DNA of 64,000 bases from Stegostoma tigrinum (Eukaryota), in contig NC_081365.1 of assembly GCF_030684315.1 (NCBI RefSeq), positions 61,186,481-61,250,480 of the forward strand. Reading direction: 5' to 3'. The notes under the pieces were generated by a model, which ran no database searches, was not told the origin of the DNA, and was given only the letters and a program-made list of their open reading frames with translations. This document shows positions 753 to 52,826 of this stretch, piece after piece. The position numbers and the translations under genes are program-made. The first letter of the stretch is position 1. Every line of letters begins with the position of its first letter.

Positions 753-1129
753 AAACACCGAGCCTTCGGACACCGACACTTGCTGTCGAACTAGTATTTA
801 CTGTGCCTGTAAGGTGGTGGAACTTTCCTGGTGTGATTGACAGGGACGTTTTGCAAAATTCTGTCAAAAGGCCAAAGAAAGTATTGGACAAGAGTGGAGA
901 GTTTCGAAGTAGAAGGGTTTGCAGAGGGATTTCCTTTGTTGGGTCCCACACAAGTGAAGACGTTACTCACACCGGCAGGGCCGTGAAAGTCTGCCTTGTT
1001 CAAAAAGACCAGAGTTGATTGAGTGCAAATATCCCAGAGAGTTGTGTTGGGCTGGGGGACACTTCATAGACAATGGAGGAAGATCACACAAGGGTTTGAA
1101 AAATAAGAAAGAAAAACTAAAATTAGGAT

Positions 1130-1247
1130 CAAAACACGAATTGCTGCAAAAGCTCAGCAGATCTGGCAGCATCAGGGAGAAAAACCATTGAGTCAACGTT
1201 TCAGGTTGACTGACCCTTCTGACCTTTTTTCAGCAATTTCTGTCTTG
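1130..1247. mobile_element. Penelope pLTR-derived fragment (inverted arrangement)
   Basis: GAATTGCTGCAAAAGCTCAGCAGATCTGGCAGCATC...AACGTTTCAGGTTGACTGACCCTTCT, homologous to the copies at 4290 and 50541. Confidence 0.6.
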
Positions 1248-1297
1248 AATCAAATTGAATCAGTTATTGTCACGTACGTTCAATGTCAAAGTACATG

Positions 1298-1961: not shown

Positions 1962-2153
1962 GACAAAAACAGAAACTACCGGTGAAACTCAGCAGGCCTG
2001 GCAGATTCTGCCACTGAAATTCTGATGAAGATTCACCAGACTTGAAACATTTGCTCTGCTTTCCTCCCATGGATTTTGCCAGACCTACTGAGTTTTGCCA
2101 GCAATTTCTGATTTGTTTTAGATCTCCAGCATCTGCAGTTCTGTTTTATTTTA
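1962..2153. mobile_element. Penelope pLTR-derived insertion with 5' inversion and 12-bp TSD
   Basis: CCCACAATTGTT duplicated at 1950-1961 and 2154-2165; internal CTGATGAAG...GAAAC decayed hammerhead motif. Confidence 0.7.
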
Positions 2154-2589: not shown

Positions 2590-2892
2590 GAATCATAGAG
2601 TTCAGAAGGAGGCCATTTGGCCCATCAAGTCTGTACCAATCTCCTGAAGAGCATCCCACTCCATAACCCCATGTTTACCCTGGTTAATCCACTTAGTTGT
2701 GCATCCCTGAATACCTTGGGACAATTTAACACATCCAATCCACCTACTCGGTTTCCTCCTACTGTCCGAAATACAATGCAGACATGGGGAAAACATGCAC
2801 ACTTAACACACAGTCACCCAAGGCTGGAATCAAACCCAGGTCCCTGGTGCTCTGAGGCAGCAGTGCTAACCACTATGCCACCTTGCTGCCCT
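2590..2892 (-). mobile_element. HE1/V-SINE-like SINE (decayed, internally deleted)
   Basis: Similar to 1298-1590, including CACAGTCACCCAAGGCTGGAATCAAACCCAGGTCCCTGG...GCTAACCACT. Confidence 0.7.
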
Positions 2893-3034
2893 GTGCATGT
2901 TGGAGCCGGCTGCATTTCCAACACCTCACAATTCTTCATACGTTTCTCGGTCTGGGACATAACCAACGGCACTTACACAGGAGAAGATGCCTCATCATAT
3001 TCTGCTGAAGCAGAGAGTAGCAAGGGAAGTGTAC

Positions 3035-3129
3035 CTCTCTGATGAAGGGTCTAGGCCCGAAACGTCAGCTTTTGTGCTCCTGAGATGCTGCTTGGCCTGC
3101 TGTGTTCATCCAGCCTCACATTTTATTAT
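3035..3129 (+). mobile_element. 95-bp Penelope pLTR-derived insertion with 14-bp TSD
   Basis: CAAGGGAAGTGTAC at 3021-3034 and 3130-3143; body nearly identical to the copies at 23187, 27875 and 49710. Confidence 0.85.
3039..3068 (+). ncRNA. Minimal type I hammerhead ribozyme motif (PLE-type)
   Basis: CUGAUGA-A-[GGGU CUAG GCCC]-GAAA-C-GUC-AG: intact catalytic core and GUC triplet; stem I is only about 2 bp. Confidence 0.65.
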
Positions 3130-3377
3130 CAAGGGAAGTGTACTTGTGACTTTGCAAGGGTAGAAGGAGTTCTAATAGTGCAAGGAGTCAGAGGCTGCAC
3201 CTATTTTTTGTTGGTGCCCCAATAACCAGAGAGTTGTTCTGAAAGCAGAATGAGTTACACTCTCTTTATGTGTAGTTGGAATGTGACAATGAAAATTACA
3301 GCATGTTGATTAATTGTTCTGTCTCCTAGCAGCAGCCACGGTGCTTTTATCTTGCTTTTATCAGCTGTTCTGACCAT

Positions 3378-3476
3378 GGGGATGGTCCTGGGTGGGATGC
3401 TTCGAGGGGCGGTGTGGACTTGTTGGGCCGAAAGGCCTGTTTCCACACTGTAGGGAATCTATTCTAATCTAATCTA
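3378..3476 (+). mobile_element. HE1/V-SINE-like 3' fragment
   Basis: GGTGGGATGCTTCGAGGGGCGGTGTGGACTTGTTGGGCCGAAAGGCCTGTTTCCACACTGTAGGGAATCT...(ATCTA)n tail. Confidence 0.7.
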
Positions 3477-3724
3477 AGGTGAACCTGAGGATGACTGCTT
3501 GGTGGCAAGGGCTAACCTTTCTACGCTTGGTTCTGTCTGGCCACAGGGTACAATGAGAACCATGCGGCAGCTGCGGTCCATGGGTTCCTTTCTTTTAAAG
3601 TTGTACAAATGTGACATATTTGGGAGGGGGTATGGAATACAGTTACAAGACATTTTATTGAACTTTTATCGACAACTAATAAAGGTACTTACAATTATAG
3701 CACAAAACTGTTTAATCATGGTAT

Positions 3725-4238
3725 CGAATTGAATTGAATTGTCACGTATTCGATGGAAAAATGCAGTGAAAAGTGTGTACCTACACCGTACATACATGGC
3801 GCCATTCACCTGAACTCAGAACAAGACAAGAATAAAAAAGATAACTTAAGGGAGTCCCAACTTTCCCTTGCACTGCCGCAGACCCACTTAGGCCTTTCCA
3901 GCCCTCTCCAGGCCTCCGCCAGCAGCCCAAACTGGGCTGCCTCATTGGCCCGCTCTCACCAGCCCAGTCTTGGGCTGCCGCTATCGCTCTGGCCCATGCT
4001 CGATTCTCTGTCGCCGCAGGACATAACTAACACATTCATTTCCCGCCACGTGGTTCTCAGTCGTGACCCAGCTCCTTCCCAACTCCTTAGGTAGGCAGTT
4101 AAAACGGGTGGCGGGGGAATAGAATTACTACCAGAGGGAGAGAGAAGGGAGGAAAAAAAAGGATGGACAAAGAAACAGAACTGGCGAGCAGAGTGAAGCT
4201 CTGAATGGAGCGACTGACCCTGCTGCCATCGTTGAATT
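3725..4238 (-). mobile_element. Unclassified non-autonomous retroposon with a (TTCAA)n-type tail; second copy at ~1252-1740
   Basis: Blocks shared with 1252-1740 (TTGTCACGTA, CCGTAC-TACATGGCGCC-TTCAC, CCCAACTTTCC, CACTGCCGCAG, CTTTCCAGCCC); GAATTGAATTGAATT tail. Confidence 0.5.
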
Positions 4239-4287: not shown

Positions 4288-4331
4288 CTGAGTTCTGAGG
4301 AAGGGTCACCGGACCTGAAACATTAACTCGG
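4288..4331 (+). ncRNA. Minimal hammerhead ribozyme motif with a 7-bp stem I
   Basis: CUGAGUU / AACUCGG stem I, CUGAGGA core, GGGUC-ACCG-GACCU stem II, GAAA-C-AUU. Confidence 0.65.
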
Positions 4332-4425
4332 TTTTCTCTTTCACAGATGCTGCCAGACCTGCTGTGTTTTTCCAGCAACTTTGTTTTTGTTCCCTGTTTA
4401 TAGCATCCGCAGGTCTTTTGGTTTT
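4290..4425 (+). mobile_element. Penelope pLTR-derived insertion (second subfamily) with TSD
   Basis: CAACTTATGTAGCT (4276-4289) / CAACTTAATGTAGCT (4426-4440); body homologous to 51055-51190. Confidence 0.8.
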
Positions 4426-5099
4426 CAACTTAATGTAGCTATTTGATACGGATGATTGGACAAATTGGTATGATGTAAATTATAGGCTGCAGTATAATTA
4501 AAGACAAAATGAAATATCTGTAATCGTGATACTGTAATAAAGTTTAAAAATATGAAATCTTGTCATGTGATCGTTTTTGTTAGTTATTCTGAAAGTCTGG
4601 ACTTGATGAAATTGGCAGCAATGGAAATCAGCCAATACAGATCACTGACCTCATGTATATGAAGAATGGTCACTTAAATGAGCTGATGGATGACTCCTTA
4701 GTGGCTCTGCAATTGCAGCTCACTCAAGTCGTTATCCTCAAAGTAAAAGTCATTTCTCTTTTTTTAACTTTATCAATATCTTTCAGGTTCATAACATATT
4801 TTGTATTAAACAATTAAAATAAAATGAAATGTATTAGTCAATTATGTGTCCATTCTGAAAATTTGTTAATGTCTTCTTGCACTTTTTTGCAATCCTCTTC
4901 AACATTAAATTTAGAAATAGCATTTTTGATTCTTAAAACCACCATATCAATTCTTCATCTTTCAAATTTTAAATTGTTAACCCAAGTTATGAACATCAGT
5001 GATCCCAGACTGATTGTGTGGGTTTCCACTTTCCATCTTTTGCTGCTCTGAATAATCACTTTTTACCAGTACTCTCTGTTTTACAGAAAGCTCACGACC

Positions 5100-7400: not shown

Positions 7401-7747
7401 CTGTCAGGATTTGTTTTGCAAATGAGGAAAATCAGGATGCATTAACACATAAGGGTAGAGGAGATGTGTAATGCCACTGCCGTCTGTCCCCTACCACCAT
7501 GCATTGAATTCTGGGATTTCTGGAAGACTCTAGAGTGTGGTTGATAGAATTTTGTGAGAGAAATTTGTTGAGAATAGAGCAAAAACAGCTGAATGAGAAT
7601 AAGATACAGATTTGCCATGATCTGATTGATACAGTAGACTCAAGGAGTTGAATGGTCTGCTCCTTTGCCAAGTGTCTGAATGAGGGCATGTATCCTTGCA
7701 GTAACATATTGGTCCAAATTTTATTAAAACTAACATAAAGCAATCAA

Positions 7748-7876
7748 TGACAGTAGGAACTGCAGATGCTGGAGAATCTGAGATAGCAAGGTGTAGAGCT
7801 GGATGAACACAGCAGGCCAAGCAGCATCAGAGGAGCAGGAAGGCTGATGTTTCGGTCCTAGTCTCTTCTTCAGAAG
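7748..7876 (-). mobile_element. Penelope pLTR-derived insertion
   Basis: GTAGGAACTGCAGATGCTGGAGAATC...GATGAACACAGCAGGCCAAGCAGCATC...TTTCGGTCCTAGTCTCTTCTTCAG; imperfect CAATCA(A/G)TG TSD. Confidence 0.75.
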
Positions 7877-8509
7877 AAAAACAATCAGTGCTAACCATTA
7901 TTGTGGCAAGTCAAATTGCAAGTTATTGGAAACGTTTGCATGTCTAGTTGCTGTCTCATTTTCCCTGTTCCCGAATGAACTTCATTACACCTCCACAGAA
8001 AGATTCAGCATTCAAAAGCAAGAAGGTGCAAAGTTGCAGCGTGTACCAGGCACAGACTAGCCATGCCAGAAAATATCAGAGTTTTGTCTATTTCACTGAA
8101 TTAACTTTAAATAGTGTAATCAGTCTTCATTATGTAACTTCCATTGCACTGAAAATTTACAAACACAGAATCTCTTCAGTTCAATTACTTGGTTTTAACA
8201 AAGTTTTTTTTTCGAAAACTGTTTTCTCTGTTTCTTTTAGCTCCTTTTAACTTCCTTCTTTTTCTTTTCCTCTCTTTGTTTCACTTTTGTCCATTATTTT
8301 ACTTTGAAGTAAATATTGTAATTTACTGTGCTTGAAAGGATTTGTATGTTCAGTTTGATGGGTTGAAGAGGCATGCCATTCATTCCTGGCTCTGTTCACA
8401 TTGGTACCAGATCCCAGATTCCCACTCACGGGCAATACACTACTTTGACTGTCGTAGCTGCAAATAGCTCAGTAAATGTCCATAGAAACCACAAAACCTG
8501 TTCTTCATG

Positions 8510-8626
8510 AGTGATAGTAGGAACTGTTGTTCTAAAGAAGGGTCTAGGTTGGAAATGTTAGCTTTCCTGCTCCTCTGAAGCTGCTTGGCCTGCTGTGTTC
8601 ATCCAGGTCTACAGCTTGTTATCTCT
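8510..8626 (+). mobile_element. Penelope pLTR-derived insertion with short 5' inversion
   Basis: GATAGTAGGAACTG (inverted piece) followed by GAAGGGTCTAGG...GCTTGGCCTGCTGTGTTCATCCAG...GTTATCTC. Confidence 0.7.
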
Positions 8627-11964: not shown

Positions 11965-12907
11965 TGTCTGTGATGAGGGTTATTGAGATTGCACTATTTG
12001 GGAGCTTGTATTCTAAACTGGAAGAACCATTTCTACATTTGATTTTTATTACTAAATTATATGTATTAAGAAGAGGACATAGAACATACCCAACAAAAAA
12101 TTAAAAACGGAAAGTGGTACTGGGTTTTCTGAAGTGTTTTGATGCATGTATTTTTATTTAATGAGAGTTTATAGCCATGGAATAGAGTTTGAGGTGAGCA
12201 GTTCAGTGTATTGAAAAAAGGGGGGTAGAAGCTGGTGAAAAAAATGGCTGTTGACTGCTTATCAGAGTCCAATGGCCAGAGAAAGATAGAACTGTTCAAA
12301 AGGCCTGGAAATATATGAAGAATCAGTCAGTGATACACTGCTGTTAGGTTAGCAGTCTCAAAACATGGGAACTGGGGAAAAAGTACTTAGAGTCATAGAG
12401 ATATACAGCATGGAAACAGACCCTTCAGTCTGACTCTTCCATACTAACAAGATATCCTAAATAAATCTAGTCCTATTTGCCAGCAAATGTCTTAAAAAAT
12501 TACTCCAGAGGCAAAAAGCTGCTAGCTGCTGAATGGAATGCCAACTTATTTACTCTGAAGGTGCATAAAGGTCAGTAATGACAAAGATGAAAAAACAAAT
12601 CATAGCGACGCCAACAGAGCACAAACTTTAAAGTGGAGACCAGATAACTCTTCACTGATGTTTGCAAATCTGTAAGATTGTTATTGAAGACGAAAGTGTT
12701 GAATCTTTATTTCTGATATTTGTACTAAGGTTGTTTCAACTAGTTATTGTTTAAGTATTTATGTTGTTTGAATAAATAAATTTATAGTCTCTTGGGAATC
12801 ACTGAACACCATGGTACGTGTATAGCAAGAATAAAACTTGTGATATCAAGACAGGTTTCACTCTGGGATTTCATTTGTCTGGTATTGCTATCAACTGGAT
12901 CACAACA
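11965..12907. mobile_element. Possible LTR of a Ty3/gypsy element
   Basis: Starts TGTCTGTGAT and ends ATCACAACA (imperfect terminal inverted repeat); AATAAA near the 3' end; gag-like remnant follows. No TSD found. Confidence 0.3.
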
Positions 12908-13260: not shown

Positions 13261-13710
13261 GGTCAAGCACGCCTATAGAAATGATTTTCACATAGATTTA
13301 GGACAATGGTTCCAACAAATATGTGTGGGTACTACAGGTGTCAGATGATTCATTAAAAGCATGTTGACAATACCAAGTCTAAATGAACAAAAATGTTTGT
13401 AGCTCTATAATGAAACAAGCAGAACAAATGCACTAAATGAATATGAAGTACCAGATAGACATTAATGTTTCCTACAATATTTTGAGCCTTGCAGACCTGT
13501 GTATAAAACATCAAATGGCAGTTCAAAAATGAAACCCTCAAAGGTGAAGTTGAGGTTCTGTATCTGTAATTACAACCTTACATGAAAGCCCAGTGTCATG
13601 ACAAGAATGAAGATCTTGGAATTCCAGATCTTAGAAATGATGCTAAAGTCACTCATCTCAGCAGAACTAGGTCAAAAGCTCAGACTACTAACCTTAAACA
13701 TGCTGCAAGA

Positions 13711-14586
13711 GTTAGAGACAACACAGTGTGGAGCTGGAGGAACACAGTGAGCCAGGCTGCATCAGAGGAGCAGGAAAATTGACGTTTCGGGTTGGGAGTC
13801 TTCTTCAAAATTGGGGAGGGGAGTTCAGAAATAGAGATGGGGTGGGGCTGGGGATGGTAGGTGGGATGGTGATAGGTGAGTGCATGTAGGGAGTGGTGGG
13901 GATTGGTCAGAGAGGTGGGGGGGGCGGATAGATGGGAGAGAAGATGGACAAATTGTGTCAGGTGAAGGAGGCGGGCATGAGAGGGAGGGTTGGACATGGG
14001 ATGAGGCAGGGAGTGGGGACATTTTAAAATTCCATGGCGAATTCCATGTTTAGGCCTTTGGGCTGTAGGCTCCCAAGGAGGAATATGATGGTTGCTCCTC
14101 CAGTTTGTGGGTGGTATCATTGTGACACTGGAGGGATCCCAGCATGGACATGTCACCCAGGGAGTGGGAACCTACAATCCGACCCCACAACCAAAGAGAT
14201 GGTTCCCTCCCTACCCCTTTTTGCCTTTTGTAGGGCCTGCTTACTTCACGACTCCCTTATTTGCTCCACACTCCCCATTAATCTCACCACACCCGGCACC
14301 TTTCCCTGCAACCGCAGGAAATACTACACCTGTCCCTTAACCTCCCCTCTCACTTTCATTCAAGGCCCTAAACAAACCACGTATATCAGACAGATCAGTT
14401 GTACATCTGTCAACTTGGTCTACTATATCCGTTACTCCTGATGTGGCCTCCTCTACTTCGGTGGGACCAAGCATGGACTCGGAGATCATTTTTTAGAGCA
14501 CTTGTGCTCCATTCGTGACAAATTACAACACCTTCCAGTCGCCAAGCATTTTAACTCCCCTGTCCACTCCCTGGGTGACATGTCCA
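13711..14586. mobile_element. Penelope-like element 3' part with GIY-YIG endonuclease remnant, internally inverted
   Basis: + strand 14171-14586 encodes PGTFPCNRRKYYTCP...CTSVNLVYYIRYS*CGLLYFGGTKHGLGDHFLEHL...VAKHFNSPVHSLGDMS. The minus strand from 14170 continues HSLGDMSMLGSLQCHND...EEQ...LGSLQPKGLNMEF and then into the pLTR. Confidence 0.85.
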
Positions 14587-16990: not shown

Positions 16991-17090
16991 CTGAGATAAC
17001 AAGGTGTAGAGCTGGATGAACACAGCACACCAAGCAGCATCAGAGGAACAGGAAAGCTGACATTTCGGGCCTAGACCCTTCTTCAGAGAG
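16991..17090 (-). mobile_element. Penelope pLTR-derived insertion with hammerhead core on the minus strand
   Basis: Reverse complement reads CTCTCTGAAGAAGGGTCTAGGCCCGAAATGTCAGCTTTCC... Confidence 0.75.
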
Positions 17091-18499
17091 GAGATATCAG
17101 CTCAGATAATCCAAAGCTAAGTTTTAAGGAATGTCTAAAAGCAGAAAATGGAGGTGGAGAGGTGGAATGGGAATTCCTGAGCTTAGAGCCAAATCAACTG
17201 AATGCAATAAATACTCATGGTGGAGTGTTTAAAACTGGGGTGCTCCAGAGGTCAGATTTAAATGAGAACTGATAGCTCAGAATGTTGTGGGACTGGAGCA
17301 GATTACAGAATTAAGGGAGAGGTGGTATTATGGATGGATTCAAAACCAAAGGTGAGCACTTTAAAATAAAGACTTGACTGGAAGATAATATAGGTTGAAA
17401 ACATAGGTTTGATAGATGAACAGGACTTAGTGTGAATGAAAAACAGATAGCAGTGTTTCAGATTACCTTAAATTTACATAAGGTAGCATGTGAGAGATTG
17501 TCAGGAGTGTATTGAAATAGTTCAATCTAGAAGTAGCCGACAAAAAAAAGGTTTCAACAGTAGTTGAACTGAGATAGGTAATATCAGGCACTGTTACAGA
17601 GGTGAATATAGGTGGAATTACAGATGGTTTGAATATGTGATTAGACAGCTTATTAACTTCAGGCTTGTGTTCCTCCATCCCAAAACTTTAACTTTTGTTT
17701 TCTTTCAAATGATGTCTGATTGGTGATTATCTGATTTCCACCATTCCCTGTGAATTCTCTCCATAAAATACAGATCTGCACCAAAACAACTCTAAGGTAT
17801 ATGATTTACACTGCAAAATTATATGCTTTAATCCCTGCTAGAACTAAAGATTTGTGTCCATAATCGTGAAACCTGTTTCCAACTTAAGGAAATAGTCTGA
17901 ATCAAATATATTTGAACGTTTTGTCCATGACTGTAAGATGATCTGTTAGTAAAGGCATGCACATTTGTCTTGTGATTGTGAAATAAAAGTCATAAAATCA
18001 AGGTCAGAATTTTCTCACATCCTACGTTGTACATGAAGTAACTATGATTTTGATGTAAGATAATAGGCAATAGATTTACAGATGGCATCGAAATAAGTCT
18101 TCACCTTGAAGGAAATTACAGAATTTACAGCATACAAACAGGCAACTTGGTCCAGCTGGTCTTTGTCAACATTTATGTTCCACACAAGCTCAAGAAAAGA
18201 TGAAAGGAATATACCGTGAAACTCTGAAGTTAAAGTGGGGAATACTCAGGTGGTCAGGTAGCATTTGTGAAGGGAGAAACTTAATTAGTATTACAGGTCA
18301 ATGCTATTTCAAGTGTTTCCAACTTACAGCAAGCTTTTATTTCATCAGAAAAGGAAATGTCTTCCTTTAAACCTTCAACAGTTTTTTTCAGCTCGGTTGA
18401 AGTGATAACAATCTGGGTCTGGGGATTGTGTGCTGGAGCTGACCATATTCTGTAGTATCTCTGAAGTGCTACTTTGTTCAAAGTAATATTCTCTTGCAT

Positions 18500-18815: not shown

Positions 18816-20679
18816 TTTTTTAACCTGTGGTGTGAATTTTTCCCCTTCTTCCTCAAACTAATTTAAATTTTCCTGTGTTATTCTATTTGTCTTTTTTGGA
18901 AAGAGGCAACTACCACTTCAGTTTAGGTGAAGGTCATGCCATCTGCACAGTCTTTCCTGAACCTAAAAATGGCTGCAGTAATTTGAAATATTTCCTCCCT
19001 TTTCATACAATCCTTCCAAACACTTATCACAACCTAATATTTTTCCATTTGGTCCATCACCAAGGATAATCTAGAAATTACTACCCTGGAGATCCTCTCT
19101 AGGATATAGAAATTTATTTATTGAAATCCTGTTACAGAATTTTAAACCAATTCTGTCCAGTCTCGGTCTATTTGGGAGTATTTGCTCATCAATGTTGCAA
19201 ACCCTGGCACGTGAGAATCAAGGATTCATGATCATATTTAAAAATAATTAAAATTCCAACAACATCCCCACACCCCCCATTGTAGAATCTGCCAGAATCG
19301 ACTCTTATCTATGCTTATCAGCTGTATTATTTCTCCTGTTGGTAATTTATTGCTCTTCATTGTGTTGTAATCCATCATGAATAACTTTCCTGATGTAACC
19401 CTTTTTGTCTATGTCATTGGAATCTAAAAAAGGTGACGTTTGCCTTAGATCCTAAGATTTCAGGTTGCATTTTGCTTTACTCAACCATCCATGTGTATTC
19501 ACCAAGATGCACACGCCTTGACATCGGATTTAACCTGCCATGTGCTCATTTGCCTATTCTACCATTTCTTCAATGTCCCATTGTAGCTTTTTTGGTCTTC
19601 AGAATTTTTTTACAATATTTCCTATTTTATGTGCTTTGTTAATTTATATGCTAAAACTCCCTTGCTGTATATCTAAACTATGGGAGCACACAGCTGTCCT
19701 ACAATATACCTGTGGCACATCATTCTCCACTTTCAAATGTTCTTGACTAACACTTTGTTTATTACTTCTAAACTAACTAGCTTTTACTCCAATCTGCTTA
19801 ACTTGCTCTAATTCTTCAATTTTGAATCTTCTCCACTAGTATGAATGTATAATGAGAAACACAGCAGCATTGTGGTTGTGTTGTACTCAGCGACTGGGAT
19901 ATTGAAGCAAACATTCTGATGTCTTGTCAGATGATTGTTATAATATAAACTTCCGAAGAATCTTATGATCATTGTAGTCTGTTGCTTCTTGCACAATCTC
20001 ATTACCAAGGAGACATTGTCACATACATTGATACGAGATCCAAAAGAAATGTGCAATGACATGGAAAACTCAGAACGCAGATTATCACTGAAAGTGTCTT
20101 CATATAATTACTTTGATAAAAATGTACATTATTCCATCATTGTCCTGAGTTTTACTTCCCCTAGTACTCCTTTCCATTTCAGGTAGCTGCATTCTGAATG
20201 CACTGTTGGAATACTGTAGTAAAAGTTCAGTTATAGGTGATTTTTTTTAAATACTTCAAACTGAACTGATACCTATAACAACCTAATCACAAAGGAGAAA
20301 ATATTCTGCAACTGGGAGGTTTCTGTGAAGAGAGCAAAGACTGATAAGATTTAAAATGTTAACTTTGTTTCTTTCCACAAATACTGACCTCCCTGGTGAG
20401 TATTTACAGTTCTTTCTGTTTTTATTTCTGATTTCCAATATCCACAGTTTTTTGCTTTTGTAGTTTCATGCCATGTTTGCTTCTTGTGTTCCATCAGCAG
20501 TTATTGGCACTTACCATGAGCAGAATGCACCACGTACAATCAACAATGAATACAATCAATGTTCATTTACATAAAGGCAATTCACAAAATCGGTTCAATA
20601 TATTGTTAGTTTCTTGCATCAAAGTAATGCAAATATATATTTAACAATAAACTCTTACACTTTTCTTTCAATCGAAAAG

Positions 20680-21360
20680 AGTGATGATGGCAATCCTGTA
20701 GAAAAAGAAAAAGAAGAATCTGTAGATGAACCAGCGGTGCAAGCTGCAGACTCGCCAGAGGCGGAAGCTGCAGCTGAACAAGAATCGGAGACTACAGCCA
20801 AAGTGGAAAGCCCAGATACTACAGAAAATGAGACAGCAGATGAGCCAGATGTGGAAATTACAGCTGAACCAGATACAGATGCAGCTGAACCAGATGCAGA
20901 GGTTACAGCTGAACCAGATGAGGATGCTACAGCTGAACCAGATGCAGAGGCTACAGCTGAATCAGAAAGAGAGGAGACAGGTGAACCAGAGACGGAGGCA
21001 ATTATTGAACCAGAAACGGAAGCGACTGCTGAATCAGATTCAGAGAAAGCAGCAGAACCAGAATCCGAACCCAAAAGTGAGCCAGATGTGCAATATGCAG
21101 CCGAGGCAGAATCAGAGCTGTTAGCCAAACCTGAAATTGAACCAACAGTTGAAGATGAACCTTCAGAGTCTGCTGCAATTGATTCTGCAGTTCCACTTCC
21201 GACTGACACTGGAAATCAACTTTCAGCTACACCCTCAGATACAACTAAGATGGCCCAGGAGACTTCACTTTCAGAAGACAAATTTTCAACCTGTTTTGAA
21301 GATCCGTATATTCGATCTGTACTGTATATGGAGAAGCACAACATTCTACAGATATTTCAG
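20680..21360 (+). CDS. TEX55: TEX55-like coding exon 2 (acidic repeat region plus start of the DD motif)
   Basis: 681-nt open frame SDDGNPVEKE...DPYIRSVLYMEKHNILQIFQ; donor CAG|GTTAGT. YMEKHNILQIFQ matches the TEX55 C-terminal motif as I recall it. The acceptor position is less certain. Confidence 0.85.
20833..21150 (+). repeat. Degenerate 24-bp (8-aa) coding tandem repeat
   Basis: ACAGCTGAACCAGATGCAGAGG-like units: TAEPDAEV/TAEPDEDA/TAEPDAEA/TAESEREE/TGEPETEA... Confidence 0.85.
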
Positions 21361-22652: not shown

Positions 22653-22715
22653 AGAATGACTGAAAATCTGGTATATGAAAGACCAGATGATCCTCTTGAG
22701 TTTATGTTACATCAG
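22653..22715 (+). CDS. TEX55: TEX55-like coding exon 3
   Basis: TTTTACAG|AGA...CAG|GTATGA; RMTENLVYERPDDPLEFMLHQ, a DPY30/RIIa-like L-x-x-x-RP-x-DP-x-x-F motif; phase 0/0. Confidence 0.9.
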
Positions 22716-23186: not shown

Positions 23187-23318
23187 CTCTCTGATGAAGG
23201 GTCTAGGCCCAAAACGTCAGCTTTTGTGCTCCTGAGATGCTGCTTGGCCTGCTGTGTTCATCCAGCCTCACATTTTATTATCTTGGAATTCTCCAGCATC
23301 TGCAGTTCCCATTATCTC
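23187..23318 (+). mobile_element. Penelope pLTR-derived insertion inside CR1
   Basis: TAATATT TSD (23180-23186 / 23319-23325); CTGATGAAGGGTCTAGGCCCAAAACGTCAG with GAAA changed to AAAA. Confidence 0.8.
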
Positions 23319-26864: not shown

Positions 26865-26997
26865 ACAGAGATAGTAGGAACTGCTGTTGTTAGATATTCT
26901 GCGATAACAAGGTGTAGAGCTAGATGAACACAGCAGGCCAAGCAGTATTAGAGGAACTGGAAAGCTGACGTTTCAGGTCTAGACTCTTCTTCAGAAA
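26865..26997 (-). mobile_element. Penelope pLTR-derived insertion
   Basis: AGAGATAGTAGGAACTGC...GATGAACACAGCAGGCCAAGCAG...GCTGACGTTTCAGGTCTAGACTCTTCTTCAG. Confidence 0.75.
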
Positions 26998-27754
26998 ATC
27001 CCTTTATATATCCCTATATATATTCCCAAATATTTAATTGGTCCACCTGTTTTTTGATTCTAAGGGACCGACATTTGTCTTCAAAAATCTTCATTCATTT
27101 TGCATACTGCCCGAATATTTTACAATCAGTTTGCATGTTCCCTGCAAGCTTCTTCCTGTACTCTATATTTTCTCTCTTAAGCAATTCCTTTATCCTTCTT
27201 TGCTGAAATCTAAACTGCCCCCAATTCTTAGGTGTGCTGCTCTTTTGGCCAGTTTGTATGTCCTTTGTTTGATCTAATACTATCATTAATTTTCCTTGTT
27301 AGCCATGCTTGAACTCCCTTTCCCATTTTGTTTGTGTGCCAGACAGGACACCAGACAATTGTCTTTGATCTTAATGTGTTCATTTTCATTCTTGTCCAGT
27401 AACCTGTAAATATAATGAGTAGATCTCCCTGTGATATATTTACTTGAAGTTCCCCCTACTTAAGTTCTTGCATTCTCTAAATTACATCACATGAAATTGA
27501 GCTGGTCTTGCTTTGTTTTGAACTATTTCTCTTCCCACCTTTTTGACTTAACTACTCCCTCACTGTACTTCAAATTGTCTATGTTTTAAACTAATGCATC
27601 CAAATCATTCTTCTCACTAAATATTATTATCCTCATTTATTTGTCTCTTTTCTGTTTGTTGCTCCTGATTCTTTTTATTTGCCCAGATTGCCTTTCCTTT
27701 CCTAATGTGAATAATTTGCTATTTCCTGATTTAACCATTATAACAGTACGTTAG

Positions 27755-27967
27755 AGATAGTGGGACTGCAGATGCTGGAGAATCCAAGATAATAAAGTGT
27801 GAAGCTGGATGAACACAGCAGGCCAAGCAGCATCTCAGGAGCACAAAAGCTCACGTTTCGGGCCTAGACCCTTCTCTGATGAAGGGTCTAGGCCCGAAAC
27901 GTCAGCTTTTGTGCTCCTGAGATGCTGCTTGGCCTGCTGTGTTCATCCAGCTTCACACTTTATTATC
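27755..27967. mobile_element. Head-to-head inverted Penelope pLTR pair with 17-bp TSD
   Basis: Arms 27786-27874 / 27881-27969 (89 bp, one mismatch seen); TTATAACAGTAC(G/A)TTAG at 27738-27754 and 27968-27984. Confidence 0.9.
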
Positions 27968-31539: not shown

Positions 31540-32470
31540 AGAATCACAGAGATAATCTGTTCCCTGTTAGCTAGCCAATCTTTTATCCATGTCAATATGT
31601 TACATCTCCATTGTGAGCTTTTCTCTTCCACAATAACCTTTGTCACTTTATCAAATGCCTTCTGGAAATCCAGTACAGTAGTTTTCCTTTATCCATTGCC
31701 TGTGCTCCTTCTTCAAACAATTCCAGTATTAGTTAAACATGATTTTCCTTTCACAAAACCGTGTTGACCATGCCTGATTACCTTGCATTTATCAAAGTGT
31801 CCTGCTATAACATCCTTAATATTAGCTAACTGGCCTATAGTTTGCTGCTGTCTGTCTCCCTCTCTGTTTAAATAAAAGTGTTACGTTCACTGTTTACAAT
31901 TCGAAGACCACATTCTCTAAATCGGAGAAAGTAAGAGCTGCTAATGCTGGAGTCAGAGATAACACAGTGTGGAACTGGAAGAGCACAGCAGGCCAGGCAG
32001 TATCAGAGAAGCAGGAAAGTTGACATTTTGGGTCGGGACCCTTCTTCAGCTTTTTTGGAAAATTAAAACCAATGCATCAACTGGGTCACTACTTCTTTTA
32101 GGACTCTAGAAATCTAATAATTTACTCTGTAGCAATTCCTTGGTAGTTGTAATTTTTGTGAATTCTTCTCTTATATCCTGATTTTCAGCATTTTCCCTCC
32201 ACAGTGAAAATTTCACCTGCCATCTACTTATTTTCCATATATATACCTTTATCTCTTGCCTTATTTCTACTTGTTAATTTTCTAATCTTTAATCTTCACT
32301 AATTTGATCCCTTGCCCTACTATTTTGTTTATAGCTCTCCCTACTTCTCTTGTTATGAAACTTACCAGAATACTTCAAGTATATGCTATTTCTATGGTAG
32401 AGATCCCACTTCCCTCCATATTGGTGCCACTGATCCAGGAACCAAAATCCACTTCTCCCAATGCACAATA
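31540..32470 (-). mobile_element. CR1 fragments (ORF2 RT piece and ORF1 esterase piece) with a PLE insertion at ~31925-32049
   Basis: CATGATTTTCCTTTCACAAAACCGTGTTGAC (QHGFVKGKSC on the minus strand); WFLDQWHQYGGKWDLYHRNSIYL in ORF 32289..32474. Confidence 0.6.
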
Positions 32471-36059: not shown

Positions 36060-38560
36060 CCATATTATATGAATTAGAAGATTACATCTATGGCCTTCCA
36101 TTTGATAAGGATTATCTGCAAAACTGAAGCCAGTTGAAGGAGAAGAACAGTAGCAGCATGAATGTGAAATTGGATCAGTTGTAGGAAACAGACAACAGTG
36201 GTTGCTTTCCAGACTGTGGCAATATATGCAGTTCAGTTCCCCAGCACTAAGTGTTAGGACTCTTGGCTCCATAATATATGTCAAGAACAAATACTTGGAT
36301 ATAGAGGGCACAACTTTAAAATTTGCAGATGACATAAAAGTTAGAAGTTGAAAATATTCTTAAATTTCAAGAGGACAGAGACAGGCTGGTGTAATGGGAG
36401 GACAAATGGCAAATGCAAAGAAGTGGAAAGTGATACATTTTGCTGGAAAGAATATGGGGAGACATTACAAAATAAATTCTATCAGTGATGGGGGAAGAAA
36501 GAGACCAGGGGTATATGACAAATCGTTGAAAGTGGCACAAAAGTTTGAGAAACCGGTTACAAAGTCAGAATAGATTCTGATCTTTATAAATGTAAGAATA
36601 GATTACAAAAACAATAAAGTTTTGATTTTTTTTCTCTCTGCATGAGGGTCAGCTTGAAACGTCAGCTTTCCTGCTCCTCTGTTGCTGCCTGGCTTGCTGT
36701 GTTCATCCAGCTCTACACCTTGTTATCTTTTATCAAACTTTTTTAAATGAACTTTTATAAATATACTTCAGCCTCAATTAGAGTGTTGTGTCCAATTCTG
36801 GGCACTGCTATTCAAAAAGGACTTGTTTTTATTCACTTGTGGGATGCGGGTGTCTCTGGCTGACCAGCATTTATTGCCCATCCCTAGTTGACCTTGTGAA
36901 GGTGGTGGTGAGTTGTCTTTTGTAACTGCTTCAGTCCAATTGCCCTGGGTTGACTCACAATGCCCTAAGGGAGGGAGGGAATTCCAGGATTTTGATCCAG
37001 TGACAGTGAAGGAATGGTGATATACTTTGAAGTCAGGGTAGATAGTGTGTGGTGTTCCCATGTATCTGCTGCCCTTGTCTTTACAGATGGAAGTGCTCAT
37101 GGGTTTGGAAAGTGCTGTCTAAAGATCTTTGGTGAATTTCTGCAATGTATCTTGTTAATAGTACAAACTGCTGCTACTGAGCGTTGGTGGTTTGGTCATT
37201 AGGTACTTGTGGGTGCAGTGCCAAATAAGTGCGCCACTTTGCCCTGGATGATATCAAGGTCCTTGAGTGTTGTTGGAGCTGCACCCATCCAGTCAAGTTG
37301 GGAGTATTTCTTCACTCTTTTGGGAGGCTTTTAGGAGTCAAGAGGTGCGTTACTCCCTGCAGTATTCCTAGCCTCTGACCTGCTTTCGTAGCCACTATAG
37401 TTATGTGGTGAGATACCGGGAGATTCAGTGATGGTAGTATCATTGAATGTCAAGGGATAGTGATTAGATTTTCTCTTATTGGAGTTAGCCATTGCCTGGC
37501 ATCTGTATGGCACAAATGTTACTTACCATTTGCCAGCCCAAGCCTGGATATTGTCCAGATCTTGTTGCATTTGAACATGGACTGCTTCAGCATCTGAGGA
37601 GTCACAAATAGGTCTGACGAACACTGCGCAATCATTGGTGAACATCCCCATTTCTGACATTATGATGGAGGGAATGTCATTTGATGAAGCAGCTGAAGAT
37701 GGTTGGGCTGAGGATACTCTCCTTAAAAACTCCTACAGGGACATGCTGGAATTGAGATGATTGACTTTCAACAACCATGCCCGTCTTCCTATGTATCAGG
37801 AATAACACCAATCAGTGGAGAGTTTGCCCCTGATACTGACTGATTCCAGTTCTGCTGGGGCTCATTGATTCCACACTCAGTTGAATGTGCTCTGATGTCA
37901 AGGGATGTCACTCTCATCTCACCTGAAAGCATTTTGGAGTGGTTCAGAAAAGAGTAACGAGAATGGTTACAAAATTAAATGAATTGTAGATGAAATTCAC
38001 ATAGATAGGTTGGAGAATCTGATTTATTTCAGCCTAGACAGAAGACAATTGAGGGGAGATTTGATAAATGCATTCACAATGATGAGAGGTCCAGACAGAG
38101 AAGATAGGGAAAAGCAGTTTCCATTGACATAAAGTTTAAGAAATAAAGAATGAAGATTTAAGGGAATCAAAAAGAAAAGCAAAGGTGCGAAGGTAGGTTC
38201 ATTTGTGGCTTTCAAAGTGGAATTAAATAAGCACCTGAAGAATAAGATTTGCATTGAGGTGAGGAAAGACCAGGGAATGATGGAGACTGCTGTGATATAG
38301 AGGGACCTGGTTACATGAATCTATAAGTCAACATTGGAGTATGGCAAGAAGTTAGGGAGACAAATGGAAAATTGATCTTTGTTGCAAGGGAGATGGTTTT
38401 AAAGTAGGAAAGTCATGATAGAATTGTACAGTGCATTGGTGAAACCATTCCCAGATAGCTTTATTTAAGAAAAGATATGCTTGCATTAGAAACAGTTCAG
38501 AGAGGTTCTCTAGGCTGATTCCTCGGATAAAGGGATTGTCTTATGAGGAGGAAATTGGCT
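36060..38560 (+). mobile_element. Decayed CR1 fragments interrupted by a PLE piece (~36633-36728) and another LINE
   Basis: AAATTTGCAGATGACATAAAA (KFADD); GTGTTGTGTCCAATTCTGG; GAGGGGAGATTTGATA (RGDLI). Confidence 0.65.
36825..37925 (-). mobile_element. LINE (CR1/L2 group) RT 3' portion with tail
   Basis: Tail complement CAGCATTTATTGCCCATCCCTAG; RT motif complement TCATTGGTGAACATCCCCA...TATGATGGAGGGA; same family as 60200-61990. Confidence 0.7.
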
Positions 38561-39576
38561 TTACCATTGCGATACGAGGTCCTTGTGATTCACATTGCTA
38601 TGAGAAAGAATGCAGAGACAGGCAATACAATGACCAGTTTATAGACTTGGCTAGAATATAACCGATTATGTCAGACAGTAGTTTTACCTGCTTGGGTCTG
38701 GGAGAAATGAAGCAGTGAAAGGATGTCACACAAGTGCTTTGATGGGAGTTTACAATGTTCAAGATCATGTAACATTTGCATCTAAAACAACCACTGTGTG
38801 CAAAAACAAAATACTGCAATTTCTAGGATTCTGCAACCAAAATTCAGAAACTGCAGGAAGTAATCAACAGGCCAGGCAGCTTTTATGGAGAGAGAAACAG
38901 TGATAATGTTTCAAAGCAATGATCTTTTTGGACGAAGACCCCAAAAAATATCCGTTTGTGCCTGCAGTTGCACACTTTGGCCTCTAAGTGCCACTGTCGA
39001 GCAGCTCAAATTTTTGAGCCTTCATAATCTTAAGCAGCAATCATGTAAGAACACAAGTCATGGAAGTAAATGTTACTATTTTTTATGAAAATGTGAAAGT
39101 TCTTGTAATGATTTTCACCAGTCTAGAATTCTTTACAGTCAGCTGGCTGTCTTCCAGAAGTTTTATTTCGATTCCATTATTATCCTCTCTGAACCATGAA
39201 GAAAGCATACCAATGATCTGCTGCTAGTGGATTCTTTTAAAGTGCTGCCCCAGGTATATTTCTGCATTCCCCCATGCTCGCTTGCTAATCTCTTCCCTGG
39301 TTTGACTTGACTCCAGTCTACCTGAACATGCATTTCTATTCAACGTTACACATGTCCAATGGATACTCACTTCACCCGCTAACAATGTGTATTTTGATAT
39401 TTTATATCTATGATCTACACTGCACCATGGCCTCCCCACCTCATCTCCAATCAGCATCACAATATGTTCTTCCACCATTCGCTAGGACCGTCAGCTACAT
39501 TTGGACAAACCCATTTTCCACTGACCAAATCTTTGATCTCTGCTCCCATAGGCAGCAAGACATCCTTTTAGATTTC

Positions 39577-39671
39577 TGATAACACAGTGTGTAGCTAGAG
39601 GAACACAGCAGGCCAGGCAGCATCAGAGGAGCAGGAAAGCTGATGTTACGGATCAGGACCCTTCTTCAGAA
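39577..39671 (-). mobile_element. Penelope pLTR-derived insertion
   Basis: GATAACACAGTGTG...GAACACAGCAGGCCAGGCAGCATCAGAGGAGCAGGAAAGCTGA...GACCCTTCTTCAG. Confidence 0.7.
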
Positions 39672-39899
39672 ATGGGGCTGTTTTGGGTCTCTGCTTAGTT
39701 ACTTGCCCTTTTTCCAAATAAACTGTTTCTCTTCACTCACTGCTTCTGCATTTCCTTGTCCTTACAGTTACGCAGTTTTCCGGATAGACAACTTTCTCTG
39801 ATATGCTTCATCTCCTAGTTTAGCTGTTCACCACACAGTTGTCCAGAAACTGGAAAGGCTAAGCACATAAGATCCTGTGACTTTGGCATACCCATTTGC

Positions 39900-41640: not shown

Positions 41641-42789
41641 AGTTGGACAAGGGTTTGGTGTAAATTTAAACCTGCTCTTTAGCTTCCTGATGCGTTTTTC
41701 TTGTTTGTTTAGTGTTCTCAATGACGCTACTGCTTTCCATGTGGATGAGTTGCAGCGTTGCTATTTGTCGCTTTTTAAGAATGTTGTAAGAATGTTGACA
41801 AACCTGTTTCTCACCTCCTTACTTGCGCCCCCCTCCCCCACCCACCCAAAACCTCACCCTTTCAATTGATGGTGTGAACTACAAGTCGTTTCTGACAGAC
41901 AAACGGGAGGCTTGAAGAACACAGCAGGCCAGGCAGCATCTGTAGGAAAGGAGCAGTCAACGTTCTGGGTATTAATTAATTACCTCAGCCATTTCTGAAC
42001 TGGCAAAGAGAATGCCATGAACTCCTTTGGCACCAGGCTATCTCTTGTTAACTAGAGTAAAATGTGCAAATAGGGATACCTTTTCATATTGGTTTATTTA
42101 AAATAAATTGTAACTTAATTTGAGATTTGCCTCATGACTGAATGCAGATTTTCCAGTTTGAAGCGCTTGTGCTTGAAGGCTAGGCTGGGGTGGAGTTGCT
42201 TTAGCAACTGGCCTATGCTACTTGTGCATTTGGTAAAGAAAAAGTAGAACCACCATAGACCTACTGGACCACATGGCTGCTCCACTATTATAGAGGGAGA
42301 TAACTGGTGGTAATTTCACTATTAGGGTAACCACAAGGGGAGATATTGAAAACAAGAGCCCTTCATGGAACTGACCCTATACTGTTGGCATCACTTAGCA
42401 TTGCATGGTAGCTCTCTTGCCAATGAGGAAACCAAACTCCTTCAATCCATATGCCCACATTTTGATAATCTTGCTTGGTATCCCCAACTATCCTGGGGAG
42501 TTAGTAACTGAGAGCTATATTTGCCCTTTTTTTTCTTCCATATTCCAGACTTTCCACAACCCTGCTTCTTCAATTGCCTGTGCTTGAAATCCCTTCCATA
42601 GCCTCTCCATGTCTCCCTCCTGTAAAAACAAGGCTGTGTGATACCTTTTATTTCCGATCAAGCACTTAGTCACTTTGTTGAACACAATTACGTAGCATTT
42701 GGGAATATGCCTCCAGATGTGCCTTTTTAAATATTAATATGTATATATTTAAATACTACTCCCCTTTCCAAAACGTGTTCTCTGAGAGC

Positions 42790-47169: not shown

Positions 47170-47334
47170 GAGATAACAGTGTGATGCTGGAGGAACACAG
47201 CAGGCCAGGCAGCATCAGAGGAACAGGAAAGCTGAAGTTTCGGGTTGGGACCCTTCTTCAGCCTGGCCTGCTGCGTTATTTCAGCTCCACACTGTTATCT
47301 CTGACCCAGCATCGGTAGTTCTTACTATCTCTGA
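47170..47334. mobile_element. Inverted Penelope pLTR pair with 13-bp TSD
   Basis: TTAAAGAATCTTT at 47157-47169 and 47335-47347; minus-strand CTGAAGAAGGGTCCCAACCCGAAACTTCAGC at 47231-47261. Confidence 0.8.
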
Positions 47335-48959: not shown

Positions 48960-49258
48960 TTTGAATACAGTTGCAGTTCTGAATGTAGCAACATGGAGCT
49001 CATCTCTCCCATCAACCAATTGGGCCATACCTACCACTAGTGTCCACCAATCACCATCATTCCATTACCTCCACACCCTGCCCCCGCCGCTGCCTGCCAT
49101 CTGCAGCTCCCCCAACCCCCACATTCAGCCTTGAAGAAGGGTAATACCCGAAACATTGACTTTGCCTTTCCTCCAGATACTCCATAGTTCGCTGTGTTCT
49201 TCTAGCCTCCTGTTTGTCGACCTTCGATTCCAGCATCTGTAGTTTTATTTTTGTCTCT
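48960..49258 (+). mobile_element. Penelope 3' region/pLTR (third subfamily)
   Basis: C-rich tract, then TGAAGAAGGGTAATACCCGAAACATTGACT...GCTGTGTTCTTCTAGCCTCC...CCAGCATCTG; a related minus-strand piece lies at ~41895-41975. Confidence 0.6.
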
Positions 49259-49470
49259 AACCTAGTGAATTGAGTTTGGAAGTGTGCTGTAACCTCAGTG
49301 TTGTAGTATTGAAGTATTCCTCTTGAATGCTCTGGTGCCAGAAGCTTTGAGTATTCATTAAGCTCAGATCCAAACATAAATGACCGGGAAAAATCTGCTG
49401 ATGGCTTCTGATAGGGTATTGAAACTGAAATGAGTTCTGTTTGATACAACACAACACAAGTCCATCAGCT

Positions 49471-49805
49471 CTCTGGGTCTAGGCCCGAAACATCAGCTTT
49501 TGTGCTCCTGAGATGCTGCTTGGCCTGCTGTGTTCATCCAGCCCCACACTTTGTTATCTTGGATTCTCCAGCATCTGCAGTTCCCATTATCACTGATACA
49601 ATTTTAACCCCACTGTGAAGCCTCTTCCAGGGATGCCTAACCTGAAGAAGTTACCCTCCTCCCTCCGGACCAACCTCAGGGAATCTCTTTCCCACTGCAA
49701 CTCTCTCGGCTCTCTGATGAAGGGTCTAGGCCCCAAACGTCAGCTTTTGCGCTCCTGAGATACTGCTTGGCCTGCTGTGTTCATCCAGCTCCACGCTTTG
49801 TTATC
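49471..49805 (+). mobile_element. Head-to-tail tandem Penelope pLTR copies (period 247 bp)
   Basis: GGGTCTAGG at 49475 and 49722; the spacer holds additional element-like sequence with a short open frame MPNLKKLPSSLRTNLRESLSHCNSL. Confidence 0.8.
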
Positions 49806-50540
49806 CATGACTGTGATCTCATTATGTTTGCATCCAGTCCAACTCTCATTATTACACTTTTTTTGTTTGCAAGGTGAAGTTGTTATTAATTGTTTTTATT
49901 AAAAACTCCTTCTTTTTACTCATTCTAAGGGTTTGCAAAGGGTCAGATTTTGTGCGAGGGTGAGACTCCTTATGTAGTTGGCAACTCTGTGGTTCCCAGC
50001 CTCACCATAGGAAATGGGGTCTACTAGCTAAGAGTGTCCAGTGAAATGTGGCTGGTTAGATGGATGGCTCTGATCTCTCTGTGCTGGGAATAAGACGGGT
50101 GGTAGGAGGCCTTTGAAAGACTGTTATTCGGCTCTTCAAGGCGCTAGTTGGCTCATAGGTATACAGGCCTTATAAGGTCATCCCTGCCTTGATGATGCGT
50201 TGTGATTATGTATCTATAATGCTGCCCAAATTAACAGATCCAAACCTGCCCACAGGGAGATGCTTACCCCAATGCCATTTTACTCCCCTCTTTTATTTTC
50301 TTAGTCAAGGATCTATCGACCTCTGCCATTTAAAATTATTCAATGAGCCTGCCTCAACTGCTCACTAGAGAAGAGGTCTGAATACTCCTGACTCTCTGGG
50401 GAGGAAATACCCCTGTCTTGAATGTTTTTGCTGTCTTTTTCAAAAGGGGAGTATACACCCTGCATTATGATTTAAATAACATACATCTTGTTTTACTGAA
50501 TGCCAACAAATTCCAGTCTGGTTTGCCTAATATTTCTTCC

Positions 50541-51190
50541 ACAACAAAACCAGAAATTGCTGGAAAATCTCAGCACATCTGGCAGCATCTGTGAAGAAAA
50601 ATCAGTTAACGTTTAGGGCCCGGTGACCCTTTCTAGGATTGATAGTAGCTAGGAAAATATAAATTTATATGCAGAAGATATGGTAGGGGGAGGGGTAAGG
50701 AGTAAATGATAGGTACGGATAGAACTTAAAGAGACGAACAGTTGGACAGTCAAAGGAGTTGATAACAATCTGGCCAGGAGGGTGAATCGCTATTAATGGA
50801 GACTGTTAGTGGCTAACAATTGTTAGCGTGTAATGGTAAGCTATATGATAAGGCCTGGTGTGTGCCTAGGGGCCAGGACATGGGAAGAGTTCAGGCCCTA
50901 AAATTATTGAACTCGATATTAAGCTCAGAGGGCTGCAAGGTTCTCACGTGCTCTCTCGTGCGCGCTCTATCCCCACCTATCATTTGCTCCTGACCTCTTT
51001 TCCGTCCCCCCCCACCCTATCTCCTTCATACAAACTGACATTTTCCTAGCTACCATCAGTTCGAGGAAGGGTCACTGGACCTGAAACATTAACTCTGATT
51101 TTTCTTCAGATACTCCAGACCTGCTGAACTTTTCCAGCAATTTCTGTTTTGCTTTTATTTACAGCATCCATAGTTCTTTTGGGTTTTTAT
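50541..51190. mobile_element. Penelope element 3' end with inverted pLTR (second subfamily)
   Basis: Minus strand encodes RTLQPSELNIEFNNFRA* (endonuclease C-terminus) followed by the pLTR; the + strand repeats the pLTR at ~50950-51190. Confidence 0.75.
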
Positions 51191-52425: not shown

Positions 52426-52826
52426 CTTCCTAAGAAGAGAAAGAACTTTTGTATTTTTCTAATTTGGGTTCCTTGTGTCGTCTTACTGGCTCAGAACAGC
52501 TTTCTAGATTCCTAATGAACTGTTGTTTAACAATAAACTGTGTACGTGATCTGACTATAAAGCAGCATAAAGATTTAACCTCCTAGCAAAGTACAGAGAG
52601 CCTTCGTGAATCTCTATGGTGGAAATGACAGATGAGATGGGGAGAAAAGTGCTCCCACTGGTCTGGCAGCTTCAATGGGCAGAAAGCACAGCCAATATTT
52701 CAGGCCCAATGATTGTTCTGATGCCAAGTCACTGGACTGGAAATATTATCTTGCGCTTTCTCCCTGAAGATGCTGCCAGATCTCCAACAACTTCTGCTTT
52801 TTGTTTAATCTCTATCATCAATTTTC

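Follow-up and report, generated by a model that had tools for sequence, protein, structure and literature searches.

Minimal hammerhead motifs in the termini of Penelope-like elements (PLEs), found as scattered solitary copies, have been known since 2014, and thousands of such copies from truncated PLEs are described in fish, coelacanth and Xenopus (PMC4209133). In published work, minimal hammerheads show weak cleavage as dimers or depend on the protein of the element for cutting. The enzyme of an anole PLE starts reverse transcription at two internal sites that define a tail of 30–40 bp, extends both target strands and uses uncut RNA as its dominant substrate (PMC11167929). Head-to-head pairs of copies with one tailed arm are likewise a published PLE arrangement (PMC8557442, legend of Figure 2; PMC3846280), for which PMC3846280 prefers self-priming on an antisense template over priming at both target ends. 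The interest of the shark family considered here is mechanistic. We propose that the short repeats of this family are probably inserted terminal (pseudo-LTR) modules of Neptune-type PLEs, likely made by the elements' own RT/GIY-YIG protein from RNA that the hammerhead had left uncut.

The window, by which we mean the whole 64-kb stretch of DNA that was analysed, is vertebrate DNA of ~40% GC with carpet-shark protein matches, its PLE fragment matching Rhincodon typus and an ORF start matching Stegostoma tigrinum. A Tex55-family gene at 20671-25974 (+) matches a Chiloscyllium plagiosum protein and has an acidic 24-bp repeat exon at 20723-21121. Other interspersed repeat families occupy 653-755, 1314-1734, 2740-2927, 3375-3477, 3780-3938, 12397-12461, 34959-35369, 44502-44962 and 58523-59007, and are probably SINE and LINE 3' ends. 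A profile trained on 18 copies chosen by hand finds 28 units of the family under study at E<1e-3, together 2858 bases or 4.47% of the window, and none in the reversed window; a covariance model search agrees with this census. At E<=1 the number rises to 29, the additional weak unit (18244-18300, E 0.12) being excluded from the 28. The initial annotation, which had described a dense family of about 20 short related insertions, is thus borne out. Units are mostly 95–130 bp long and dispersed as single or head-to-head copies (Table 1), with no strand bias seen among them and no tandem array of complete motifs in the 64-kb window; the six youngest are identical at 74–81 of 82 positions across their common stretch.

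Table 1. Members of the repeat family and associated features, in window positions
Feature	Position	Strand	Evidence
Short-ended 95-bp copy, young subfamily, starting 4 nt before hammerhead C3	3035..3129	+	profile, duplication, empty site
Left copy of 14-bp target-site duplication (right copy 3130-3143)	3021..3034	+	sequence; organism B retains one copy's length
Minimal type I hammerhead motif, cut predicted after 3066	3039..3066	+	pattern, descriptor, folding
Old head-to-head pair of module fragments	1122..1250	.	profile
Head-to-head pair flanked by a 12-bp duplication; left arm short, right arm tailed	1962..2153	.	profile, duplication search
Tailed copy, second subfamily, 8-bp duplication, 5-bp stem I inside the element	4290..4432	+	descriptor passed
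Tailed copy, 10-bp duplication with one mismatch	7747..7877	-	profile, duplication search
Short-ended copy, broken core	8530..8625	+	profile, core alignment
5'-inverted PLE remnant	13699..14586	.	protein matches, identity to short copies
Short-ended copy, intact core, 2-bp stem I	16993..17090	-	profile, descriptor
Old decayed unit	20348..20451	+	profile, covariance model
Young tailed copy, core G12 lost, 7-bp duplication, between Tex55-family exons (same strand)	23187..23318	+	
Tailed copy	26866..26998	-	profile
Young head-to-head pair, 12-bp duplication; left arm tailed, without core start; right arm short, core intact (27876-27903)	27750..27967	.	repeat comparison, duplication search
Tailed copy, core G12 lost	31925..32049	-	profile, core alignment
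Decayed short-ended copy	36634..36728	+	profile
Further old decayed unit	38813..38919		
Short-ended copy, broken core	39578..39676	-	profile, core alignment
Further old decayed unit	41877..41970		
Head-to-head pair flanked by a 13-bp duplication; left arm short, right arm tailed	47170..47334	.	
Third-subfamily copy with C-rich upstream extension (start approximate)	49000..49250	+	
Partial tandem: module, tail, PLE ORF start, second module from 4 nt before C3; spacing 247 bp, both hammerhead motifs broken	49463..49806	+	
Head-to-head pair, 3' UTR in both arms (reaching ~310 and 95 nt upstream of core), ends short and tailed	50541..51190	.	
Further old decayed unit	52660..52783		

That the copies have moved is best seen at 3035-3129, which is flanked by two copies of a 14-bp sequence. 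A contig of organism B (a related species, run X5) passes from 2863-3020 directly to 3130-3376 with no letters between, that is, without the 95-bp unit and without one copy's length of the duplication, and this empty site identifies 3035-3129 as an insertion. Organism B also lacks, or has a replacement of, ~3377-3579. Exact target duplications amount to 14 bp at 3035, 13 bp at 47170 and 12 bp at both 1962 and 27750 (17 bp at the latter if one mismatch is allowed); weaker ones are of 8 bp at 4290 and 7 bp at 23187 and 50541, the 7748 copy has one of 10 bp including a mismatch, and the remaining 13 of the 21 insertions searched gave nothing convincing. The 7–17 bp duplications first reported for several copies are confirmed, but since random controls reached at least 7 bp in 24 of 150 cases and 12 bp in only one of 150, those of 12–14 bp alone stand by themselves.

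The family extends well beyond this locus. The summed depth at 3022-3115 is 3.0e7 compared with ~20–40 in unique bins of run X1, which signifies high repetition but should not be taken for a number of copies. In each of the four runs, opposite-strand joints at 4292/4340 point to head-to-head copies at other loci, position 4340 perhaps merely reflecting clipping at an indel. No RNA record was listed for 2700-3500. The 4290 subfamily (compared at 4338-4431) appears abundant in organisms A, B and C by relative depth; the 3035 subfamily appears much scarcer in organism C than in the other two, as judged from relative depth with 61% of the run covered, again not a copy number. The uneven depth of the 3035 subfamily among organisms suggests a lineage-specific expansion.

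What the unit is can be read from its neighbours in the PLE remnants. The remnant at 13699-14586, which matches the shark PLE protein P0002 with 67% identity over 139 aa (tblastn, E 7e-52), has its linker and GIY-YIG part on the plus strand (14172-14586) and the endonuclease end, 3' UTR and module on the minus strand (14171-13699), the continuation running from the endonuclease end through a C-rich 3' UTR to the repeat unit. Both arms at this inversion contain a 23-bp stretch in common (14145-14167 and 14564-14586). The module at 13810 is 81–86% identical to the short copies 32048, 39677 and 47260, and the arms of 50541-51190 are 81% identical to the 4290 copy. In organism A, 381 contigs aligning from 3035 continue upstream into C-rich sequence resembling the 13810 3' UTR (agreement 0.52). 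On the other side, the young unit 49463-49709 runs past its tail into a PLE ORF start, where 49633-49707 (ATG at 49633) is identical in 25 of 25 codons to the start of P0158, a protein that aligns to the N-terminus of the RT plus GIY-YIG protein P0011 (E 6e-13). Found both behind the endonuclease with its 3' UTR and ahead of the ORF start, the module is the pseudo-LTR.

Relatives of the window's PLE fragment carry RT plus GIY-YIG; one of them, P0004, gives RVT_1 and GIY-YIG matches and has a C-x4-C-x2-C linker. The GIY-YIG match exceeds the Pfam cut-off in P0002 and P0004, while Pfam assigns the window's own endonuclease fragment to no family. A zinc-finger-like linker (C-x2-5-C-x2-C) is found in P0002-P0007, with the middle Cys changed to Tyr in the window copy. 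Such a linker between RT and endonuclease is described as a mark of Neptune and is also present in Nematis (PMC8557442), and the cysteine pattern suggests the Neptune clade for the shark elements. The RT/GIY-YIG remnants announced at 13711-14586 and 50541-51190 are only partly substantiated: the former has the GIY-YIG part, the latter ~17 codons of an endonuclease end (E 0.16, a weak match) plus 3' UTR, and neither has the RT, for which 157 relatives used as queries gave no convincing match in the 64-kb window. No full-length PLE lies within the window either, so the link to an active enzyme is one of homology. Among metagenome contigs, 74 candidate relatives of P0004 were found and none was confirmed. 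We agree with the initial annotation that the copies are mobile and most likely mobilised by the PLE RT/endonuclease. Its further proposal of a separate SINE- or retrozyme-like population is not supported, because each subfamily matches the terminus of a PLE remnant in the same window, the units form no tandem arrays and no copy has its start at the cut site.

The minimal type I hammerhead motif of PLEs, as initially annotated, is indeed present. The pattern CTGA-N-GA-N8-24-GAAAC has eight matches in the window against 0.83 expected from 100 shuffles, one of them, at 18348, being no clear family member. This last site (18315-18348, minus strand, CTGATGA...GAAAC) has a different 6-bp stem beside the weak unit 18244-18300, with no NUH triplet in register. 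Using the RNAmotif descriptor from the supplement of PMC4209133 (Cervera and de la Pena) without its stem I requirement, the full core plus stem II occurs at five sites against a null expectation of 0.1. The motifs at 3039 and 27876 have the core boxes, a stem II of 3–7 bp, the NUH triplet and the palindromic 15.2-16.2; that at 3039 has a 4-bp stem II, a loopless palindromic stem III, an extra nucleotide before stem II and a G10.1-C11.1 pair, and its cut is predicted after 3066, where the annotation had expected it. Both cores had been called intact, which is right for their letters (3039-3066 and 27876-27903) but is not borne out for them as ribozymes: stem I has only 2 bp at 3039, 27876 and 17086, short of the published minimum (3–7 bp). 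Only the 4295 motif passes the full descriptor, including a stem I of at least 3 bp, and this one has lost the stem III palindrome. Stems I of 2 bp are listed for minimal hammerheads of Drosophila, Culex and Oikopleura (PMC4209133), and the 3039 motif is therefore of the family type, at its weak edge.

The suggested structural covariation in stem II is not borne out by the alignment. The 5' arm GGGT is constant across the four subfamilies listed in the initial annotation and the changes are one-sided (G-C/G-U, U-A/U-G), a two-sided change occurring in one of four pairs and in a single sequence; with 18 decayed copies aligned, the covariation score was equalled by 129 of 500 shuffles, stem I having four two-sided cells. 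What looked like covariation in an outer downstream helix was set aside, since its registers differ from one subfamily to another. For the 3039 motif the predicted folding energy is -5.5 kcal/mol for the active dimer compared with -38.0 kcal/mol for the inactive dimer, and the predicted monomer fold pairs the first catalytic box with the cleavage site. In the young subfamily (window 3047-3058 and other young copies) stem II and its loop are self-complementary over 12 nt, unlike the stems II of the other subfamilies, so that two RNAs are predicted to pair into the inactive dimer. Folding of nine whole units gave none clearly more stable than shuffles (z -1.58 to +0.81). Given these predictions and the 2-bp stem I, self-cleavage by the 3039 motif is doubtful. 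As published minimal hammerheads are themselves weak or protein-dependent, poor folding is compatible with activity in the source element.

Column identity is 0.91–0.93 in the core, 0.70 in the spacer and 0.92–0.96 in a downstream block and hairpin. This block with its small hairpin 3' of the ribozyme (3083-3114 and equivalents) is thus conserved between subfamilies like the catalytic core, and is a candidate protein-binding or promoter signal. Of the 18 copies aligned, nine have an altered core, in keeping with decay once inserted; G12, which sits within a CpG, is changed in two of the four young full-core copies. An Rfam scan of the window returned no hammerhead family, only seven chance-level matches at E<=10 with none at gathering level, and a search for the core pattern in metagenome contigs gave no match.

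The ends of the copies are informative about how they were made. Their 3' ends fall into two classes, at ~+90–93 and ~+124–130 from C3, and the ~35 nt between them form the 'tail'. Each of the four resolved pairs (1962, 27750, 47170 and 50541) consists of one short and one tailed arm, and three of the four have duplications of 12–13 bp; the pairs at 1122, 52660 and 13699 were left out of the scoring of arm asymmetry. By analogy with the anole enzyme, the PLE protein would nick the target and begin reverse transcription inside the RNA at either site, and its ability to prime both target ends would yield pairs with one tailed arm; we infer that it made the short copies directly. At the 5' side, read by hand, 15 of 28 units start within -8..0 of C3, mostly at -4, four extend 95–360 nt upstream and nine begin inside, while none starts at +26..+30, where the 5' end of a cleaved RNA would lie, and none ends at the cut site. 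With half of the units starting just before the motif and none at the cut site, the copies likely derive from uncut RNA. In such a scheme the template would be RNA that the hammerhead had not cut, and the hammerhead would be a passenger in the copies, decaying after insertion.

For the clustering of 5' ends, the exponential truncation model in its most favourable form gives P ~3e-12, a value that overstates the firmness of the count, since only four single-copy starts are bounded by a duplication (3035, 23187, 4290 and 7877), two of them by short or imperfect ones. Loose ends at other loci point the same way in kind: in the 4290 subfamily, among the contigs listed, 588 of organism B share only ~4 letters upstream of 4291 before AT-rich noise (agreement 0.35), while part of those of organism A run farther upstream. 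The tract upstream of the boundary is of low complexity. The simplest reading, to which we give somewhat less than an even chance, is that the RNA begins at the boundary, priming in the first module running off its end and priming in the second module giving the longer copies. More speculatively, the RNA might start ~4 nt before the core and the mini-copies might be integrated 'strong-stop'-like cDNAs primed 95 or 130 nt inside, each possibly recopyable, as each would be a complete start-site and RT-entry module; the second module at -4 after ORF sequence in 49463-49806 would then fit a template jump from the RNA end. If this were true, the ends would locate the RNA start and the two priming sites to the nucleotide in a very large number of copies, and the template inserted in vivo would be ribozyme-uncut. 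A cap would leave an extra G at the 5' junction; one is found at 4290 and possibly at 49710 and 32051, and is absent at 3035, 23187 and 7877. An initiator-like match lies at -4 (TCAGTT in two subfamilies and a run of pyrimidines in the young subfamily), which we discarded as start evidence because the same letters form stem I. In Drosophila virilis Penelope, transcription starts ~120 nt upstream of the hammerhead (46 nt plus a 75-nt intron; PMC2377424, PMC4209133), and a start at -4 can thus be no general rule for PLE RNAs. We also considered and set aside splicing to an acceptor at -4, on the D. virilis pattern, there being no AG at -6/-5 and no common upstream exon in the copies.

Several other explanations have to be weighed against this scheme. 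One of them competes only with the step concerning the RNA end: the copies might be ordinary 5'-truncated 3' ends whose boundary reflects a stop or joining preference of the RT at the foot of the ribozyme or at the C-rich tract. We regard this as a serious, if minority, possibility. PLEs typically suffer severe 5' truncation (PMC8557442; 10.64898/2026.07.22.740005), four of the copies reach far upstream, and the young subfamily has a C-rich run from -5 onwards, at least in a loose-end consensus; the second subfamily, however, lacks this run although 4290 has the same start, the hairpins predicted for the cDNA are weak (-1.2 to -3.6 kcal/mol) and no better than those of shuffles, and the four resolved pairs, a small sample, show no mixture of boundary and far-upstream arms. 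The fixed 5' boundary, together with the very high repeat depth and the conserved block downstream of the ribozyme (0.92–0.96 against 0.70 in the spacer), could alternatively be taken for a SINE-like, self-propagating non-autonomous family, its short units carrying their own start site and RT entry signal, being transcribed and being recopied in trans by the PLE protein. Precedents are at hand, as the pseudo-LTR alone is enough for mobilisation in trans in Adineta (PMC3846280) and non-autonomous PLE derivatives exist in Chlamydomonas (PMC8557442). We nevertheless think it unlikely, because every subfamily goes with the terminus of a PLE, the tail is missing from short-ended copies, the window copies share no common 5' flank and no recurring inverted junction, and at least two subfamilies have this boundary in common, which speaks for a recurring mechanism more than for one master. 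A SINE has a Pol III head (tRNA-, 7SL- or 5S-derived) distinct from its partner's tail; here the whole unit is the PLE terminus, and no Rfam family reaches gathering level.

The intact cores and the one partial tandem with its 247-bp spacing (49463-49806) might suggest true retrozymes, in which hammerhead cleavage of tandem transcripts yields unit-length or circular RNAs for reverse transcription and insertion, and retrozymes are reported in the sole chondrichthyan sampled by 10.64898/2026.07.22.740005. This is very improbable for the present family: no unit starts or ends at the cut site, stem I has 2 bp with inactive dimer and monomer folds predicted, both motifs of the partial tandem are broken, and the window contains neither an array of complete motifs, not even complete hammerheads in at least two consecutive units, nor units bounded by the cut site. 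The 5' end of this partial tandem (49463-49474) is rearranged: six core letters are absent from it, and six letters correspond to the core start in reverse complement. We therefore return to direct insertion of pseudo-LTR modules by the PLE protein as our preferred reading.

A search of the literature, with subscription papers, Repbase and Dfam outside its scope, found no published description of this shark family or of a shared 5' boundary, and the portion of PMC6155905 covered adds nothing on sharks. The sharp boundary is one under-described feature, which may mark the RNA 5' end and can be tested by counting in an assembled shark genome. Apart from this, the family is an in vivo record from another clade that agrees with the in vitro results on the anole enzyme as to two internal priming sites and an uncut template. 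It also carries a warning, in that hammerhead counts in shark genomes mostly reflect dead fragments.

Compared with the minimal hammerheads of metazoan PLE pseudo-LTRs (PMC4209133), the shark motifs agree in the core boxes, the additional nucleotide ahead of stem II, the G10.1-C11.1 pair, the palindromic 15.2-16.2 and the missing loop 3, and similarly occur mostly as solitary genome-wide copies from truncated PLEs with several families per genome; the main shark subfamily differs in its stem II of 4–5 bp and stem I of 2 bp, which are at the short end. The alignment rows compared, from part of the supplement of that paper, include no cartilaginous fish. With insertions of Neptune-clade endonuclease-positive PLEs, as described in PMC8557442 and PMC3846280, the copies share 5' truncation, a partial tandem, adjacent inverted copies, a 30–40 bp tail on one end, target duplications of ~8–14 bp and the zinc-finger-like linker before GIY-YIG, and they differ in that most are 95–130 bp long with one common 5' boundary. 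The green anole Poseidon element PAc (PMC11167929) resembles them in its two internal RT start sites defining the tail, in insertion of uncut RNA and in a hammerhead near the ORF start, both strands being extended in vitro in the case of PAc; it belongs to a different clade, and its ORF starts inside stem II whereas the shark ATG lies ~165 nt downstream of C3, past the tail. Finally, animal non-LTR retrozymes (PMC7229834; 10.64898/2026.07.22.740005) are likewise non-coding, derived from PLE pseudo-LTRs and equipped with type I hammerheads, and dispersed monomers of them occur. Retrozymes as described are tandem repeats of ~150–450 bp, in PMC7229834 with canonical hammerheads and circular RNA, whereas the shark copies carry the minimal motif, lie dispersed or head-to-head and have ends set by PLE RT start sites.
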